Below are positions 10,519-43,407 of a DNA stretch of 64,000 nucleotides, in pieces. Made by a program: the position numbers and the translations under genes. The stretch comes from a virus. Taxonomy: Duplodnaviria; Heunggongvirae; Uroviricota; Caudoviricetes. The notes below the pieces were generated by a model, which had not been told where the DNA came from, searched no databases, and worked only from the letters and a program-made list of their open reading frames with translations. The stretch covers positions 192,001-256,000 of IMG/VR virus record IMGVR_UViG_3300002834_000024. One strand, 5' to 3'. Each line of letters begins with the position of its first letter. Within the stretch, counting starts at the first letter, position 1.

Positions 10519-11468
10519 AAAAGTTTTTAAGTTGGCTTAAAAAAAATCAGGATGTTGTACTTCGCATGGTGTACAGCATCCCTGTTATTTTAGCAGTTAT
10601 CGTATCAATTAACCATGCAATAACATGGTTTGATATTTCAAATCCAAACTATTGGAGTGTTTTTTTATCTATATCGGTTGAAATTGTTGCCTTAACAACA
10701 CTTGTTGCGCTGATTTTAGGGAAGAACACATTTTCTGTGGTTACAACATTTATTATAATAACATTAGTACAAATATTAGGTAATATTTTCTTTTCATTTA
10801 ATTTTATAGATGAGAGTGGCAATTTATTTCAATCATGGGTTAAATTTGTTGATATTATTTTTACAGATAGTGAATTGACAATGGATAAACATAAATTTTG
10901 GTTGGCTACAATTCAAGGTAGTGTTGTACCATTATTATCGCTTCTTTCAATTCATCTAATTTATAGTCTGAAACTGAAAGAAGATAAAGATACTAAAAAG
11001 TTAAGTGAGGAAATAAAACCAATCCAAATTCAGAAAGAGGTAGAAGTAATTCCTGAAAAGGTTTTTAAAAAACCAACTAATTTTGAACCAATAGAAGAAG
11101 ATTTTAATGAAATAGAAGAATATTTACCTGATTTTCCAATTATTGATGAACCAAATATAGATGAAGAAGAAATTCCAGAAATTCTTGAAGAAGTTACAAT
11201 GCCTGTAATAAACGAACAGGTTGAACCGATTAAAAGGGTAAAGATACCAAAACGAATACACAAACCAGATGTAGTTGAAATATCTAATGGCGAATTTGTT
11301 CCTATTAAAGAAGATGAGACTAAATCTGATGTGGAAGAAATAATTGTTCAGGATGAAGAACCAGAACAACTGTATTATGAAGATATGGGACAACCAGCAT
11401 CAAGGGTAATCAATAAACAAAAACGTCAATCATTTTTACCAAGAGTTAAAATAAATAACAGAAAGTAA
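10515..11468 (+). CDS. Multi-TM membrane protein with acidic C-terminal tail
   Basis: About 4 hydrophobic helices, E/P-rich tail. Confidence 0.65.
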   Translation: MKKFLSWLKKNQDVVLRMVYSIPVILAVIVSINHAITWFDISNPNYWSVFLSISVEIVALTTLVALILGKNTFSVVTTFIIITLVQILGNIFFSFNFIDESGNLFQSWVKFVDIIFTDSELTMDKHKFWLATIQGSVVPLLSLLSIHLIYSLKLKEDKDTKKLSEEIKPIQIQKEVEVIPEKVFKKPTNFEPIEEDFNEIEEYLPDFPIIDEPNIDEEEIPEILEEVTMPVINEQVEPIKRVKIPKRIHKPDVVEISNGEFVPIKEDETKSDVEEIIVQDEEPEQLYYEDMGQPASRVINKQKRQSFLPRVKINNRK

Positions 11469-11501
11469 CAGACAAAACTATTTATAAGAAAATTATATAA
11501 G

Positions 11502-11963
11502 ATGTCTAGAAATGATGATAAATATACACGATTAATGCTTGAAAGTATTAGGAATTTTCAACATAACCCTAATAAACCTATTCTATTGAATGAAGATACC
11601 AATACTGATTATAATAGTGTTCAAAGTATTACAATAACAAAAGAAAATTTTCCAGATTTATTTGAAGAAATTAAAAGTTCATTAATTCAAAAAATACCAA
11701 ATGTTAGACTTTCTGATGATTATCTACAATTGGATAAACAGAAAAATACTTTAACTCTATCTGGTGTTGTTCAAAACTTAAATAATTTGGAATTTACTAT
11801 TACAACCGATATTAGTAATGATGATGGGCTTTATGTAACAGTTGAAGGTCTTAATCTTACACAAGGAACATTACAAACACTCCAAGTATTACAAGGGTTT
11901 AGTAAAGTATTTATTAATGAGTGGACAATCAATAAAGTTGCTGATACCTTTAAAATGACTTAA
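11502..11963 (+). CDS. Hypothetical (probable virion) protein
   Basis: Preceded by TATTTATA; LLNE-type site near N-terminus. Confidence 0.6.
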   Translation: MSRNDDKYTRLMLESIRNFQHNPNKPILLNEDTNTDYNSVQSITITKENFPDLFEEIKSSLIQKIPNVRLSDDYLQLDKQKNTLTLSGVVQNLNNLEFTITTDISNDDGLYVTVEGLNLTQGTLQTLQVLQGFSKVFINEWTINKVADTFKMT

Positions 11964-11970
11964 TATCTCT

Positions 11971-12735
11971 ATGCAATATATTAACACCAAAGATTTAATA
12001 AGTAAAATAGTTACTGAATGTCTTTTTGAGATTAGTAAATTAAATAATGAATCACTGATAATAGAAGGATTAAGTGATTTATTATATCATTTTACGGATA
12101 TAAAGGGTATTAATAAAATAGCAGAAACAGATTCATTTGTTGATAATTTGGATAGAACAGGTAATACTGCATTTTTTTCCTTTTCAAGATCAAAAAACGC
12201 AAATATTGGATATGCACGAAGAAAAGGATTATGTGTTAGAATAACATTTGATGGTGTAAAATTGCAACAAAATTTTAAAGGTAGTCAGTTTGATTACTAT
12301 CGAAACAAGGGTGACTATGGGTATCTTAATTTGGGGGATGATATAAGTGGTAAAGAAGCAAGAAGAAATTATGATATACAATATAAACGCACTTTTAATG
12401 ATAAAGAACGTTTTAGTATGTTAAATCAAGAAACGGAATTTGAAGATAGGATTGAAGTAGATAAAAGAAAACCAAATAAACGTGTAGATATTGATAATAA
12501 TAATAAAGTATACATTAAAAATGTTTCAAATTACATAATACGAATTGATGTACTTCCACCAGCTTTTGAAGATGTATATTTTTTATCCCAAAGTAAGTTG
12601 GCTCAAATAACATATGTTTATTTAGATCAAAATTCATATGCGCTACAACTTAATAGAGATGTGCTTCGATTAACTGATATGGGTAAAAATCCAGCAAATT
12701 TTTCATTTAATACAAATCAGGTATATAGAGTTTAA
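11971..12735 (+). CDS. Putative ADP-ribosyltransferase-fold virion protein, paralog A
   Basis: LYHFT / FSFSR / ETEFEDR motifs shared with 12921 ORF. Confidence 0.45.
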   Translation: MQYINTKDLISKIVTECLFEISKLNNESLIIEGLSDLLYHFTDIKGINKIAETDSFVDNLDRTGNTAFFSFSRSKNANIGYARRKGLCVRITFDGVKLQQNFKGSQFDYYRNKGDYGYLNLGDDISGKEARRNYDIQYKRTFNDKERFSMLNQETEFEDRIEVDKRKPNKRVDIDNNNKVYIKNVSNYIIRIDVLPPAFEDVYFLSQSKLAQITYVYLDQNSYALQLNRDVLRLTDMGKNPANFSFNTNQVYRV

Positions 12736-12920: not shown

Positions 12921-13910
12921 ATGTTAAATGAAGAAAAAGATGAAGTTACTTTTTATCAGTTTCTTTCTGAATTGAAAAGTTTTTTACGTGATTTACTCCA
13001 ACACCCAGTTAAATCCGAATTGGATGATTTTTTTAAATCCAGGGGATTTAGTAAGAGTAAATTAATTGAATATCTAATCAAGACTGAAATGATTAAAAAA
13101 ACCGAAAAAGTTAATAGTGATGATCCAGAAAATGTAACACTTGAAGTTTCTTATCTTATTCCCAAGAAAGGGTTTGAAAGGAAAGTTCAAAAAATGTTTA
13201 TAAAACTATTTGAAATAAGAGAAGATATTGATAAATCATGTTTAATAGAGGGGTTAAGTGATGTATTATATCATTTTACACGTTTTGACAGACTTCTTGA
13301 TATATTAGATTCAGATGAAATGAAAGATAATGTAGATCAAGATAAGGCTAATTTTTATTTTTCATTTTCACGAGTAAAAAATGCAAGTATTGGTTATGCA
13401 AGAAATGAAAAGTCACATGTTAGAATAACCTTTGATGGAAGAATGTTATCTTATAATTTTAAAGGAAATCCCTTTGATTATTATAAAAAGAGTCAGCATA
13501 CATGGGAACGAGATTCAGATTTAAGTGGAAAAGAAAGAAGAAGACAACAAGATAATGAATTTAGGATTAATTTCAATGATGAAAAAAGTTCCCTGAATAC
13601 TGAAACTGAATTTGAAGATAGAATTGAAGTACCCTCTAACAAATTTAATAAAAATGTTAAAAGAGTTGATTCTGGTATTGTGATTAAAAATATATCAAGA
13701 TATATAAGACGAATTGATGTTTATGTTAGTGAAAAAGAATTAGATATATGGTGGATAATCAATAGACTTGTGAGGTTACATGAAAATAAACTTTCAAATA
13801 TTATATTTATTTATACTGACAAAAAGGACTTTGATTTACAAACTAATAATACAATGAAAGTAACAGATTTTATAGAAAAAAATTTTAAAGGAGAATACGG
13901 ACCGCTATGA
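12921..13910 (+). CDS. Putative ADP-ribosyltransferase-fold virion protein, paralog B with extra N-terminal domain
   Basis: LIEGLSDVLYHFT / FSFSR / ETEFEDR. Confidence 0.45.
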   Translation: MLNEEKDEVTFYQFLSELKSFLRDLLQHPVKSELDDFFKSRGFSKSKLIEYLIKTEMIKKTEKVNSDDPENVTLEVSYLIPKKGFERKVQKMFIKLFEIREDIDKSCLIEGLSDVLYHFTRFDRLLDILDSDEMKDNVDQDKANFYFSFSRVKNASIGYARNEKSHVRITFDGRMLSYNFKGNPFDYYKKSQHTWERDSDLSGKERRRQQDNEFRINFNDEKSSLNTETEFEDRIEVPSNKFNKNVKRVDSGIVIKNISRYIRRIDVYVSEKELDIWWIINRLVRLHENKLSNIIFIYTDKKDFDLQTNNTMKVTDFIEKNFKGEYGPL

Positions 13911-14239
13911 GAGAAATATCTAAATTTAAACCTAATATGAGTGATGAAATTGCACCAGTTGTATCAGTGAAATTTGAACAATCACCAAATAAAGAAGTTA
14001 TTAAAGAACATGAGAATAAACAGATAAGTTATGCTAAAACTTATCAAGATATTCAAAATGAGAATTATCAAAAAGCATTGAAAACTAAACAACAACTTGA
14101 AGAAGCATATAAGGGTGATGAAAATGGTATTATTGATTATGATAAGATTACAGAATTAAACTATCAGCTCTTATGTCAGGGAATGTGGTTGTCCAATATC
14201 CATAAAAGCGAGTATAACAGATATAATCCATTAATTTAA
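13907..14239 (+). CDS. Hypothetical protein
   Basis: Coupled ORF. Confidence 0.6.
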   Translation: MREISKFKPNMSDEIAPVVSVKFEQSPNKEVIKEHENKQISYAKTYQDIQNENYQKALKTKQQLEEAYKGDENGIIDYDKITELNYQLLCQGMWLSNIHKSEYNRYNPLI

Positions 14240-14264
14240 TTAATAAACTATTTATTATAAAAAA

Positions 14265-15647
14265 ATGAGTAAGACGATGAAATGGTCGGAAATACAACAG
14301 ATAATTAAAGAGGAAATCAATACCGAGATACAAAGAAATCCAACGATGTCTAAATCTGCTTTTCCTGAAACTGAAAAAACTTCAAATCAAGTATATAAAG
14401 ATGCGGAGTCTAAAAGGGTTGAAACTGATACTAAAAAAGCACCTGGGGCTTTACAAGCCAAAGATACCCCTATGCAACCTTATACTGGTTTTGATAGAGA
14501 TAATAATAAAGGGTTGGAACGTATTAAGTATGATAATATTGATGATAAATTTCAGAAACGAGTAAATGCTCTTGCAATGGGAAAAGATAGTCCATTACAA
14601 AAAGATATTGATGAGTCTGAACAAGGGGTATCAACTAGCGGTAATGAGAAATTTGTAAATAGATCAAAAGAAGCAAATCAATATGATAATGATACAAATG
14701 GGTTTGGTAAAGATAATAAAGCAGGAATATTGTTTGGTAGTGATATAGAAGTTTTAGATGGTGATAAACCAGCACATCAAGATTCAGCATTTGAAAATAC
14801 AAATAATAACACAAAAAATCAAATGAACGAGGAAAAAACATTGGAAAATAAAATACAAAAGGGCGAAATTTTTATTGAATCTAAAAGAGGTTTATCTTTG
14901 AAAGTAATTGGATTATCAGAAGATAAAAAAAGTATTAAATTTATAGATGAAAGTACAAATAAACAATATAGTTTATTAAAAGAAAATTTCAAAAGGTCTA
15001 TTGAAAACAATACCTTATTAAGAGAAAATGTTTTTAATGCGTATAGAGAGTGGGCATTAGCAGTTAGAAATTTTGATTTAGACCGTTCTAAACAACTTTC
15101 AGATAGTTTTAATCAAAAATATGGTATGCACCCAGTTAATACTGAATCTTTTGAGAAAGATAAAAAAACACAAGAAGCATTAGATCAAATGGCTAAAATG
15201 AACGAAGATATTGCTGCCCCTAATGCTCAATATGATGCTGATGGAAAAATAGATTCAATTTCAGAACCATTTAAAAAAGTAGTTAAAGAACCAGTTACAG
15301 GTCAAGTACCTACACCTCAACATGGTACTCTTAAAGAACAAAAATCAAGATTAATATTTAACAAGACAAAGTTCCTTTGTGAATCTCATGTGTTTTCATT
15401 AATACCTGAACATTTTAAAGTTGATGGTAAGCAATTCAAAATGATTGATAATACTGGTAATGAATATTTAATTGAATGGAACCAAAAAGCAGAAATACTT
15501 GAACATAAAAATGAAAATGCTGTTCAGGAACAAATGAAACGTATGAAGCAATTATGGGAACATAAACCAGAAAATACTGATAGAAAAATACAAGAAAATA
15601 CATGTATCTTGGATGAAGTTAGAAAAAATATTCAAAAAGAAGAATAA
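14265..15647 (+). CDS. Probable virion internal/head protein
   Basis: IQQIIKEE N-terminus, several LxE sites, TATTTAT upstream. Confidence 0.55.
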   Translation: MSKTMKWSEIQQIIKEEINTEIQRNPTMSKSAFPETEKTSNQVYKDAESKRVETDTKKAPGALQAKDTPMQPYTGFDRDNNKGLERIKYDNIDDKFQKRVNALAMGKDSPLQKDIDESEQGVSTSGNEKFVNRSKEANQYDNDTNGFGKDNKAGILFGSDIEVLDGDKPAHQDSAFENTNNNTKNQMNEEKTLENKIQKGEIFIESKRGLSLKVIGLSEDKKSIKFIDESTNKQYSLLKENFKRSIENNTLLRENVFNAYREWALAVRNFDLDRSKQLSDSFNQKYGMHPVNTESFEKDKKTQEALDQMAKMNEDIAAPNAQYDADGKIDSISEPFKKVVKEPVTGQVPTPQHGTLKEQKSRLIFNKTKFLCESHVFSLIPEHFKVDGKQFKMIDNTGNEYLIEWNQKAEILEHKNENAVQEQMKRMKQLWEHKPENTDRKIQENTCILDEVRKNIQKEE

Positions 15648-22419: not shown

Positions 22420-22516
22420 AGGAAATTCACAGCAATTTTTTAAAAATTAACAATTATTCAATTCAAAGACCGTAGGGTTGATCTATCGGGATCAACAAAC
22501 AAAAACAAATTTCCTG
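22420..22516 (+). ncRNA. ACAGCAA stem-loop RNA unit 1
   Basis: AGGAAATT/AATTTCCT closing stem, ACAGCAA after 5' arm, inner GTTGATC/GATCAAC hairpin. Confidence 0.5.
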
Positions 22517-22527
22517 TCTTTTTTAAA

Positions 22528-22587
22528 GGAAAACTAACAGCAATTTTTAAACATACAAATTTTAGGCGTGTATTAAAGAGTTTTCCG
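22528..22587 (+). ncRNA. ACAGCAA stem-loop RNA unit 2
   Basis: GGAAAACT/AGTTTTCC stem, ACAGCAA, inner ATACA/TGTAT hairpin. Confidence 0.5.
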
Positions 22588-22645
22588 TTTTTTTTTTGAA
22601 AATTTAGAAATAATCAATATATTTATATTTGATTAAAAATTATAT

Positions 22646-22727: not shown

Positions 22728-22793
22728 GGAAAACTAACAGCAATGTTTAAAAACCATCATTCTGAATCAATGACGACATTAAAATGTTTTCCG
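22728..22793 (+). ncRNA. ACAGCAA stem-loop RNA unit 3
   Basis: GGAAAAC/GTTTTCC stem, ACAGCAA, inner TCATT-CTGAATC-AATGA hairpin. Confidence 0.5.
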
Positions 22794-22842
22794 TTATTTT
22801 TTAAAAATTGAACTATTTATAATTCTAAAAGAAATTAAAAAA

Positions 22843-22977
22843 ATGTTTTTAGTAACAATGACATCTTATATTCAAAATTCTATCAATTTACGTGGTGGAA
22901 ATAAGAATAATAAACCCTTTGGTGATGATGAACAACCAAAAGGGCAAGACCTGTTATTGCAAAAATTTGAAACATAA
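22843..22977 (+). CDS. Attenuator leader peptide 1 (44 aa) for tRNA array 1
   Basis: MFLVTMTSYIQNSINLRGGNKNNKPFGDDEQPKGQDLLLQKFET; core matches array 1 amino acids; contains antiterminator arm 22948-22959. Confidence 0.8.
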   Translation: MFLVTMTSYIQNSINLRGGNKNNKPFGDDEQPKGQDLLLQKFET

Positions 22978-23006
22978 ATGAAGATATAAGTTTCCATAGT
23001 TTTTCA

Positions 23007-23065
23007 GAGAACTCTCAATAACAAGGTCAAGAATAGGGCAAGTTATTGGGAGTTTTCATTTTTTT
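23007..23065 (+). terminator. Attenuator terminator upstream of tRNA array 1
   Basis: 16-bp stem 23007-23022/23042-23057 followed by A and T7. Confidence 0.8.
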
Positions 23066-23108
23066 AACATCCAGTTCAAAAGAGTTTGAATAATTTGGAT
23101 TACTTTTG
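23064..23108 (+). promoter_or_regulatory. TTAACATCCAG box + TAnnTTTG promoter
   Basis: Box, 26 nt, TACTTTTG; tRNA-Glu follows. Confidence 0.75.
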
Positions 23109-23118
23109 TAAAAAATAT

Positions 23119-23193
23119 GGCGGTATCGTATAACGGTTAGTACGACTGACTTTCGCTCAGTAAATAGGGGTTCGATTCCCCTTACCGCTACCA
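23119..23193 (+). tRNA. tRNA-Glu (TTC)
   Basis: Cloverleaf, ACTGA-CTTTCGC-TCAGT, encoded CCA. Confidence 0.92.
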
Positions 23194-23198
23194 AGAAA

Positions 23199-23210
23199 GT
23201 TCTTTGAAAT
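23199..23210 (+). promoter_or_regulatory. boxA-like antitermination element
   Basis: GTTCTTTGAAAT resembles rrn boxA. Confidence 0.5.
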
Positions 23211-23217
23211 ATAAAAT

Positions 23218-23289
23218 TCCCCTGTAGCTCCAATGTAGAGCGACAGACTGTTAATCTGTGGGTTCGTGGTTCAAGTCCACGCAGGGGAG
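23218..23289 (+). tRNA. tRNA-Asn (GTT)
   Basis: ACAGA-CTGTTAA-TCTGT. Confidence 0.92.
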
Positions 23290-23297
23290 CTAAAAAA

Positions 23298-23374
23298 CGA
23301 AAGGTAGAGGAGTCTGGTTCCCTCGTCATCTGATGTGCAGGTGGAGTACAATGGTTCAAATCCATTACTTTCGA
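23298..23374 (+). tRNA. tRNA-like gene, Pro-type body with aberrant anticodon loop
   Basis: C1-G72/A73, D and T arms intact, loop GATGTGC lacks U33. Confidence 0.55.
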
Positions 23375-23381
23375 CTAATAT

Positions 23382-23457
23382 CTAGATGTATAGGAGTCTG
23401 GTTTATCTAGCTCGCCCTGGAAGCGAGATCACGTTGGTTCAAATCCAACCATCTAGA
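23382..23457 (+). tRNA. tRNA-Pro (TGG), atypical C33/A37
   Basis: CTCGC-CCTGGAA-GCGAG. Confidence 0.75.
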
Positions 23458-23464
23458 CACAAAT

Positions 23465-23538
23465 GCAGGTGTCGTATAACGGTATTATTATATCTGGCTT
23501 CCAACCAGAGGACGTGGGTTCGATTCCTATCACCTGCT
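23465..23538 (+). tRNA. tRNA-Gly (TCC)
   Basis: TCTGG-CTTCCAA-CCAGA. Confidence 0.92.
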
Positions 23539-23548
23539 CAACAAATAT

Positions 23549-23621
23549 GGGATTTGTGGTGTAATGGCTAGCATATAACACTGTCACTGTTAAGGTTGGG
23601 GTTCGAGTCCCCCAGATCCCG
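23549..23621 (+). tRNA. tRNA-Asp (GTC)
   Basis: TAACA-CTGTCAC-TGTTA. Confidence 0.88.
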
Positions 23622-23629
23622 CAAAAAAA

Positions 23630-23702
23630 CGAGTAGTCGCACAGTTGGTAGTGCGCTTGGTTTGGGACCAAGAGGTCGGGAGTTCGAGTCTCTCCTATTC
23701 GA
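23630..23702 (+). tRNA. tRNA-Pro (TGG)
   Basis: CTTGG-TTTGGGA-CCAAG. Confidence 0.92.
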
Positions 23703-23799
23703 CATAAAAATAGAAATTATGAAGAAGATTTTTAAAATAAAACGAAAACATATGCAGTCCCCATAGTCACTATCGGCTATGGGGTCGCTATCAGGCTAT

Positions 23800-23870
23800 T
23801 TCCTCATAGTTCAATGGTAGAACTCTACACTTTTAATGTAGATATTCAGGTTCGATTCCTGATGGGGAAA
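23800..23870 (+). tRNA. tRNA-Lys (TTT)
   Basis: CTACA-CTTTTAA-TGTAG. Confidence 0.9.
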
Positions 23871-23902
23871 CAAAAAAAAAATAGATATATGATAATTAAT
23901 AT

Positions 23903-23974
23903 GGTTTCATAGTTCAACGGATAGAATATTTGACTACGGATCAAAAGATGAGGGTTCAAATCCTTCTGAAATCA
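23903..23974 (+). tRNA. tRNA-Arg (ACG)
   Basis: TTTGA-CTACGGA-TCAAA. Confidence 0.92.
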
Positions 23975-23985
23975 CAAGCATATAT

Positions 23986-24057
23986 TGTCCTATGGTGTAG
24001 TTGGAAACACACATCCCTTTGACGGATGTATCTTTTGTTCGAGGCAAAATGGGACAA
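23986..24057 (+). tRNA. tRNA-Gln (TTG)
   Basis: CATCC-CTTTGAC-GGATG. Confidence 0.9.
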
Positions 24058-24076
24058 CAAATTAAAATATAATGTT

Positions 24077-25415: not shown

Positions 25416-26147
25416 ATGATTATGAACAAAGATAAAAAAGACTTGATAGTTGAGAGTTATAAGAACAAATTTTCCTTTTTACTTGGATATGATCCAGAAA
25501 TTGGGGGCGAATTGATAGAAGCAAACCACCATAATTTTATGTCAGAAATTATGGGACAAGATTCATTCAATAAACAACCAATGCAAAGATTAGATGAAAT
25601 AACAACTGACAGATTGTTAGGAAAACATTATGAAAATGGATTTGTTATTCTGTCAGCATCAAGGAGTGAATTATCCGATGCAGAAAATGTAACACGAAAT
25701 CAAAAACTTTTAAATATTTTACAAAGTAGTAGTAATGTTTTTTCATTTTTACCAGTCTATGGTGGATATATCGAAAATAAGGGTACAGAAAACGAACAAC
25801 GTGTTTTTGAAAGAAGTTTTGTAATCTTGAATTTTGATAAAAATGGTAATGTTGGAGATTTTGATGATTTAATGAGTTTTTCACAAGAACTTTCTAATCG
25901 TTTTCATCAAGAAACATATCTTATCAAAAAACCAGGTAATGCACCACCATATTATATTCGTACAAAAAGTGGCAAGGTAGATTGGGAATTTACTGGTGAA
26001 ATCAAAATAGATGATTTAACACAAAAATATTTTACCCGATTAAGACAACTTGGAAAACAATTTACATTTGAAGGTGTTTATATTAATCCAAAACCAATGT
26101 GTTATAGTGAAAGACATTGTAGATATTTGAAAAATGAAATATTTTAA
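25416..26147 (+). CDS. Conserved phage hypothetical protein
   Basis: ILSASR..N..RN..L..PVYGGYIE..E.SF..F.QE pattern. Confidence 0.65.
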   Translation: MIMNKDKKDLIVESYKNKFSFLLGYDPEIGGELIEANHHNFMSEIMGQDSFNKQPMQRLDEITTDRLLGKHYENGFVILSASRSELSDAENVTRNQKLLNILQSSSNVFSFLPVYGGYIENKGTENEQRVFERSFVILNFDKNGNVGDFDDLMSFSQELSNRFHQETYLIKKPGNAPPYYIRTKSGKVDWEFTGEIKIDDLTQKYFTRLRQLGKQFTFEGVYINPKPMCYSERHCRYLKNEIF

Positions 26148-26390: not shown

Positions 26391-26463
26391 GTAATTATTT
26401 TAAACTTTTTTTTAAAAATTGAATTTATTGACTATTTATAATAAAATTAAAAATTTTTTAACA

Positions 26464-26574
26464 ATGAAACGATTTAGTTTACATATTAGTATTACCTTAT
26501 CAGCAATGGCGTATTGCTGGTTGGTGTCTTATTGTACACTTTTTACACATTTTGGTGGAATTGTTTCAAGTTAA
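26464..26574 (+). CDS. Attenuator leader peptide 2 (36 aa) for tRNA array 2
   Basis: MKRFSLHISITLSAMAYCWLVSYCTLFTHFGGIVSS; residues 4-30 all match array 2; antiterminator arm 26561-26570. Confidence 0.82.
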   Translation: MKRFSLHISITLSAMAYCWLVSYCTLFTHFGGIVSS

Positions 26575-26605
26575 TATTATATGAAATAAAGATAGGAAAG
26601 ATTAT

Positions 26606-26662
26606 AATCCCCTTGAAACAAATTAGTCAAAAAGTGATGAAAAGTTTTAAGGGGATTTTTTT
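26606..26662 (+). terminator. Attenuator terminator upstream of tRNA array 2
   Basis: 14-bp stem 26606-26619/26644-26657 with T tract ending 2 nt before first tRNA. Confidence 0.82.
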
Positions 26663-26746: not shown

Positions 26747-26831
26747 GGAGAGTAAACCTGGACATGGGTTAGGGACCGCCTGCTAAGCGGATCGTTCCGC
26801 AAGGAATTTGGATCGAGACCAATGCTCTCCG
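26747..26831 (+). tRNA. tRNA-Ser (GCT)
   Basis: CTGCTAA loop, long variable arm, G73. Confidence 0.9.
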
Positions 26832-26840
26832 CAAAATTTT

Positions 26841-43335: not shown

Positions 43336-43407
43336 GGTCCTGTAGTATAATGGACAGTACATAAAACTTCTAATTTTAGAGTGATGGTTCAATTCCATCC
43401 AGGATCA
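43336..43407 (+). tRNA. tRNA-Arg (TCT)
   Basis: TAAAA-CTTCTAA-TTTTA. Confidence 0.9.

Follow-up and report, generated by a model that had tools for sequence, protein, structure and literature searches.

The window analysed here is a stretch of 64,000 nucleotides belonging to a virus record of 275 kb with a GC content of 29%, and the genome encodes a Gp23-type capsid gene. All 26 tRNA genes called by ARAGORN in this genome lie inside the window, where they form two arrays and some singletons. Array 1 is preceded by a short ORF, leader 1, and an intrinsic terminator, and a sister cassette of similar layout precedes array 2 (Table 1). Judging from the TAnnTTTG -7 element of the genome's promoters, the host is probably a member of the Bacteroidota (the -7 promoter consensus of this phylum is given in PMC7366714). 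Scans of viral_contigs with single proteins or with leader patterns recovered no close relatives. Among GenBank phages only tRNA-level matches were obtained, with about 42% identity for the closest capsid proteins, so that the phage has no cultured relative in the GenBank phage collection.

Table 1. Features of the leader 1 region, array 1 and the sister cassette (positions in the window)
Feature	Position	Strand	Remarks
Putative late promoter of the leader	22812..22821	+	TATTTATA core at 22814-22821, 29 nt ahead of the leader ATG
Leader 1 ORF	22843..22977	+	44 amino acids, A-rich start context
Region 1, protector strand	22856..22867	+	Pairs with region 2 in the MFE fold; codons 5-8
Hairpin A, within the ORF	22878..22900	+	94% of cells paired; 2 pairs with two-sided changes
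Control codons 17-36 of leader 1	22891..22950	+	19/20 from the eight amino acids of array 1
Hairpin B, within the ORF, candidate pause hairpin	22915..22944	+	95% of cells paired; holds the F26 codon
Region 2, antiterminator strand	22948..22959	+	Strongest partner within the ORF for the 5' arm of the terminator, five of five homologs
Conserved motif, stop codon to terminator	22990..23005	+	Conserved in five homologs
Intrinsic terminator (3:4)	23007..23065	+	16 bp and U tract; region 3 is 23016-23028; two-sided changes among homologs
Second promoter, past the terminator	23065..23108	+	TAACATCCAG upstream element and Bacteroidota-type -7 element at 23101-23108
Array 1	23119..24058	+	Glu(TTC), Asn(GTT), degenerate gene, atypical Pro(TGG), Gly(TCC), Asp(GTC), Pro(TGG), Lys(TTT), Arg(ACG), Gln(TTG)
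Lys/Arg-rich mini-leader inside array 1	23719..23784	+	ORF 23719-23766, hairpin 23759-23784; conserved in L001 and L002, with co-varying sequence
Sister cassette, ahead of array 2	26431..26662	+	Promoter, leader 2 (26464-26574), terminator (26606-26657)

Array 1 was taken to serve eight amino acids, a reasonable choice but one of judgement, as it leaves out the Thr(TGT) gene called by ARAGORN at 23298-23375. This gene has an aberrant anticodon loop (G32/A33) and no Rfam tRNA match; it shares Pro-like D and T arms with its neighbour at 23382-23458, a Pro(TGG) gene with C33. Degenerate tRNA-like genes are also present at two of the related loci described below, L002 (about 13155-13235) and L027 (310-382). 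Leader 2, which makes use of AGT codons, matches the other 12 amino acids. At 26747-26832, a tRNA-Ser(GCT)-like gene was read by eye; it is missed by ARAGORN and by Rfam at the gathering threshold. Between the two arrays lies a SAM-lyase-family gene (25416-26147; PF23780, 30.7 bits).

The first-pass annotation had drawn attention to the composition of leader 1, and its count was reproduced at the same coordinates: 19 of the 20 residues 17-36 are drawn from E, N, P, G, D, K, R and Q, and all eight are present. The sole Arg codon is indeed CGT, the Arg tRNA of array 1 has the anticodon ACG (23903), and the TCT tRNA is found at 43336. Among 104,852 six-frame windows of the genome, the core is the only one with at least 19 of 20 residues from the set and all eight amino acids. 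When the bases of the ORF were shuffled 200,000 times, a score of 19/20 was never reached; 200,000 shuffles of its residues reached it 6 times. Because the amino acids of array 1 have purine-rich codons (the cores are 61-69% purine), shuffles were also restricted to the bases of the core, which gave P <= 5e-5 for leader 1 and P <= 1.2e-4 in each of the five homologs. The bias is frame-specific, with 17, 10 and 5 of 18 codons matching across the three frames of leader 1 and far lower values in the two other frames of the homologs. Purine richness was on these grounds ruled out as the source of the core bias. The peptide as a whole is only mildly enriched for array-1 amino acids (z = 1.66), so that the bias does not extend beyond the core. 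Leader 1 and array 1 match in their amino acids and only partly in their codons: by the wobble rules, two GGT codons and one CCC codon of the core are not normally read by the UCC and UGG tRNAs of the array.

Homologs of leader 1 were found through a neighbouring gene and a profile search at four loci, L001, L002, L026 and L027, and the arrays behind all four include Glu and Asn tRNAs. The homologous peptides are 40-44 amino acids long and 40-50% identical, insertions and deletions in the ORF are multiples of three, and the reading frame is conserved between promoter and terminator in the five homologs, leader 1 included. In the 18 codons ahead of region 2, 14-17 of 18 residues are from the array-1 set, compared with 4-5 of 14-16 in the N-terminal part; each of these structure-defined 18-codon cores is without Q or R. 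Five positions are invariant (P25, G27, D29, P32 and G34), and the variable positions of the core exchange mostly among array-1 amino acids. The Arg codons of the five leaders are all CGN (7/7, about three of them independent), which fits the ACG tRNA; genome-wide, CGN makes up 29% of Arg codons and AGR 70%. These comparisons indicate that the leader 1 ORF is under selection for its reading frame; its translation is predicted.

The eight amino acids form a common hydrophilic, disorder-promoting set, and this, together with the purine content of the cores and the weak enrichment of the whole peptide, could suggest that the ORF encodes a small protein with a function of its own and a hydrophilic loop, that the terminator behind it is an ordinary one, and that the resemblance to the array reflects a class of residues or purine-rich DNA. 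We regard this as very improbable. The bias exceeds that of base shuffles in five of five homologs and depends on the frame, and two further observations given below, a conserved and co-varying complementarity between ORF and terminator and the match of other leaders to arrays of mixed chemistry, would be left unexplained or unexpected. No Pfam family matched the ORF.

The RNA of the leader can adopt several alternative pairings. Those put forward in the first-pass annotation are present: region 2 pairs with region 3 over 12 bp with one bulge (-14.7 kcal/mol), the terminator hairpin at 23007-23057 has 16 bp (-21.8 kcal/mol) and is followed by a U tract, and hairpin B is found at 22915-22944. 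To these our analysis adds a helix between regions 1 and 2, hairpin A, and a base-pairing constraint on the codon of F26. A 1:2 duplex, rewired in L027, forms in five of five homologs with energies of -8.7 to -14.0 kcal/mol; in the nascent leader of all five, it is predicted as an outer helix enclosing two hairpins. Hairpins A and B are 95% paired with four two-sided changes, compared with 32-58% for slid controls, values that are indicative only, as five related sequences were available. In the stem of hairpin B, a two-sided change from U-A to G-C goes together with the exchanges F/C and K/R. Base pairing in hairpin B thus accounts for the odd residue F26, and the protector helix together with hairpin A accounts for the N-terminal third of the leader, which does not match the array. 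The duplex between region 2 and the 5' arm of the terminator was stronger than expected from codon shuffles in the five homologs (P = 0.004-0.02). In L027, regions 1, 2 and 3 are altered in concert and both helices survive. Overall, folding and covariation of the five sequences point to three mutually exclusive helices, 1:2, 2:3 and 3:4, with compensatory changes.

Searches of the leader for Rfam T-box or riboswitch families gave no match, either at the gathering threshold or at E <= 10, and a T-box identity was ruled out on this basis. A sigma-70 and terminator scanner called neither the terminator, which has a long loop, nor the promoters, and was uninformative here. The motif between the stop codon and the terminator has a CATAG core, which could be a pause or factor-binding element; a related CATAG core is found after the stop codon of non-homologous leaders in L118 and L119.

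The effect of a translating ribosome was modelled by blocking a ribosome-sized stretch on the RNA transcribed up to region 3. For leader 1, 2:3 pairing was high for A-site codons up to 32-33 and near zero from codon 34 onwards. In five of five homologs, pairing digits were 7-9 of 9 through the core and collapsed within 1-2 codons of its end; in the model, the control-codon core stops where the ribosome would cover the antiterminator strand. With the ribosome at the stop codon, region 2 is left uncovered in the window, L002 and L026, that is, in three of the five modelled leaders. This implies, if the model holds, either a leaky basal read-through or a reliance on re-formed 1:2 helix; for trp, basal read-through after ribosome release has been described (PMC1183508). 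With the full terminator included, the terminator was the favoured equilibrium fold in the window and in L002 wherever the ribosome was placed. The switch must therefore be kinetic, antitermination being a kinetic trap, and equilibrium folding of the full leader was discarded as a test of switching, since attenuation is a kinetic process.

In this static model, a stall anywhere up to codon 33 permits 2:3 pairing, and this includes the hydrophobic N-terminus. A real switch could then report overall ribosome speed, or arrest of the nascent peptide at the conserved Pro/Gly/Asp motif formed by the five invariant residues, rather than a shortage of particular tRNAs. We consider such a general translation-stress attenuator unlikely. 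Most of the invariant residues fall within hairpin B, and RNA pairing would explain their conservation, although a sequence-specific arrest motif of the TnaC/ErmCL type might also be conserved at these positions. The exchanges at variable core positions, which stay mostly within the amino acids of the array, also argue against a general attenuator, as do the leaders of other phages.

These were sought among the complete genomes of the clade, sampled via the capsid gene, in which the tRNA arrays were read. In four of them (G001, G018, G011 and G010), a promoter, a short ORF that is not homologous to leader 1, and a terminator lie ahead of an array. In the leader of G001 (L019 reverse, 1941-2036), 15 of the 16 residues of the core are from its own array, and all nine amino acids of that array are represented; this core was picked by eye, and the unselected stretch gives P = 0.006. 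The nine amino acids (Thr, Tyr, Glu, His, Asp, Asn, Gln, Pro and Leu) are both polar and non-polar. The G018 and G011 leaders match their own arrays as well, and the arrays matched in G001 and G018 mix polar and non-polar residues, which the small-protein explanation did not lead one to expect. No match to the array is seen for the leader of G010 (z = -0.33), which samples nearly all amino acids, as a sensor of general stress might.

For six hand-chosen pairs of leader and array, the true pairing ranked first of 720 permutations; it also came first of 24 when only the four other genomes were used, and second when a structure-defined zone of 20 codons was scored. The sample is small and the test carries no phylogenetic correction, and the array boundaries as well as two added tRNAs of G011 are our own calls. 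In the non-homologous cassettes, the 2:3 duplex was not significant on its own (P = 0.10-0.35). That leaders follow different arrays across phages nevertheless speaks against a sensor of ribosome speed in general. A short ORF of G002 (L025 reverse 1710-1796) also matches its own array (z = 3.1) and uses GAG and CAG codons, the array having CTC and CTG anticodons; it was dropped from the final permutation for want of a clear intrinsic terminator. At the arrays of G004, G005, G020 and G021, and at one array of G001, no such leader was found, and the system is thus patchy in the clade. In G011 (L119 3066-3140), the first tRNA after the leader has the anticodon TCA and would read UGA.

Two classes of promoter bear on the transcription of array 1. 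The genome holds 80 copies of TATTTATA, of which 42 are intergenic, compared with 11% of intergenic DNA, and most stand 23-31 nt ahead of an ATG. Copies are also found ahead of capsid-region genes and of a gene for a large structural-type protein of 1832 amino acids, and the 29 nt that separate TATTTATA from the ATG of leader 1 correspond to the spacing found ahead of virion genes. Three of the four homologs have the exact element, and L001 a variant. From these sequence contexts, TATTTATA is probably a late promoter; no published account of it was found in a literature search that reached few subscription journals. The first-pass annotation had warned of a separate promoter at about 23064-23108, past the terminator. 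As far as sequence can tell, this promoter is genuine: of 26 TAACATCCAG-type sites in the genome, 25 have a TAnnTTTG element 36-37 nt downstream, and the promoter is kept in four of the five homologs (the window, L001, L002 and L026) and missing in L027. It had been deduced from this that attenuation would govern only read-through from upstream. This caveat holds, as far as sequence shows, with one refinement: the leader has a promoter candidate of its own at 22814, and the switch would not act on distant read-through alone. Array 1 would then have two inputs, one basal and one conditional, of which the switch would govern the latter. In L027 and G001, no recognisable promoter is present between terminator and array. 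In these two cases, and for leader 2, transcripts of the first gene would all have to cross the leader, which is not so for array 1. A sigma-70-family protein encoded by the phage (9390-10133) may recognise one of these classes of promoter. The initiator tRNA is flanked by long stem-loops with unpaired ACAGCAA (22421-22516, 22528-22600 and 22728-22800); two of the three run into U tracts, and these two could end transcription from upstream ahead of leader 1. Units of this type also occur in L001 and L026, and correspond to no credible Rfam family.

A well-formed promoter right after the terminator in four of five homologs, and a terminator that is more stable than the antiterminator (-21.8 against -14.7 kcal/mol), might mean that the switch contributes little: nearly all array-1 RNA would come from the downstream promoter, the terminator would serve as insulation, and the leader would be a relic or a minor tuner. 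This we find decidedly unlikely. The core, the frame and the three helices are kept beside that promoter at 40-50% protein identity; conservation of the switch in the very genomes that have the bypass promoter argues against a relic. In L027, moreover, the promoter is missing.

The reading that we favour, and hold to be likely on the basis of sequence and modelling, is that leader 1 is a ribosome-mediated transcription attenuator that senses a shortage of array-1 tRNAs and regulates tRNA genes. The first-pass annotation had proposed attenuation, and the computations support it: the five homologs have kept the frame, the core and the alternative helices, the modelled switch point lies at the end of the core, and leaders in other phages track different arrays. 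Transcription from the TATTTATA promoter would enter leader 1, where the nascent RNA is predicted, from folding and covariation, to form helix 1:2 around hairpins A and B. At one of these hairpins the polymerase would probably pause until a ribosome has caught up. With rapid decoding of Glu, Asn, Pro, Gly, Asp, Lys, Arg and Gln codons, the ribosome would pass codon 33 and cover region 2, allowing the 3:4 terminator to form. A shortage of any one of the corresponding tRNAs would hold the ribosome back in codons 17-33, and in the model region 2 takes region 3 before region 4 exists; with 2:3 formed, the polymerase would read into array 1. The phage tRNAs would then restore decoding, closing a negative feedback loop. 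The unattenuated second promoter would provide a basal, probably early or middle supply, to which the switch would add a conditional and probably late one. The phage probably responds to a loss of tRNAs during infection and not to amino-acid starvation, for which extra tRNA would be no remedy.

Multivalent leader-peptide attenuators are known from the ilvGMEDA and thr operons of E. coli and Salmonella, and the pheM leader of E. coli pheST controls an aminoacyl-tRNA synthetase. With ilvGMEDA, thr, trpL and hisL, leader 1 shares a short ORF, control codons, the 1:2/2:3/3:4 arrangement and an intrinsic terminator, and slow decoding leads to read-through, as proposed here. It differs in that its targets are tRNA genes and not enzymes, in addressing eight amino acids, in residing in a phage and in having a bypass promoter, and its output would feed directly on decoding capacity. 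Two features of the attenuator class (trpL/hisL/ilv/pheM) are thus absent from leader 1, namely biosynthesis or synthetase targets and transcription exclusively through the leader. The pheM leader is similar in that a translation component is attenuated through the supply of charged tRNA, but it concerns one amino acid, a protein-coding target and a cellular gene. T-box riboswitches likewise sense tRNA status and control a terminator/antiterminator choice, but they bind tRNA directly, without translation. The leader-peptide attenuation model itself is set out in PMC1183508.

The nearest regulatory precedent is the long tRNA array of Anabaena PCC 7120, which is supernumerary like array 1 and is induced when translation is impaired (PMC8421152). 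It is not of phage origin and has no codon-matched sensing, and neither attenuation nor a leader is mentioned in that article. Phage tRNAs counter host defences that deplete tRNAs, according to the abstract of PMC10264068, which suggests a likely signal and purpose for array 1, the replacement of depleted host tRNAs; the abstract deals with changes in the anticodon loop and not with regulated expression of tRNA genes. Leader-peptide attenuation of phage tRNA arrays or tRNA operons was not found in the literature searched, which covered few subscription journals. With no published case found in it, trp-operon-style control of tRNA genes would be new relative to this literature.

A second possible level of control lies inside array 1. 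Mini-leader loci are found in the window (23719-23870), L001 (11845-12015) and L002 (14646-14805). In these three genomes, with different sequences, the 5' arm of the mini-leader hairpin mimics the 5' strand of tRNA-Lys, and its 3' arm can pair alternatively with that strand. In the model, the acceptor stem of the tRNA is intact with a ribosome at codons 2-11 and invaded at codons 12-13. The mini-leader is thus a possible translation-controlled switch of tRNA-Lys folding. We lean, with some reserve, towards a general scheme in which the jumbo phages of this clade keep their tRNA genes in sorted blocks and check the decoding capacity of the cell for each block with a codon-matched leader. The tRNA supply would then correct itself, being turned on once host defences or phage takeover have depleted particular tRNAs, and in array 1 it would be layered with post-transcriptional control of tRNA-Lys folding by the mini-leader. 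Why phages carry tRNA genes has been unresolved for more than 50 years (PMC10264068). By spelling out the amino acids of its own block, the sensor would tell which shortage the phage is built to detect. If the scheme is true, leader-peptide attenuation would extend from enzymes and synthetases to tRNA genes, the sorting of the arrays into 8 + 12 amino acids would be explained, and the leader would be a natural sensor of multi-tRNA depletion.

L002 shows two additional features. Its initiator tRNA is closely preceded by a gene with a Cas12f1/TnpB-like domain and, behind that gene, a short array of CRISPR-like repeats (10658-12510), and a DUF559 gene is inserted in its array 1 (13314-14438).
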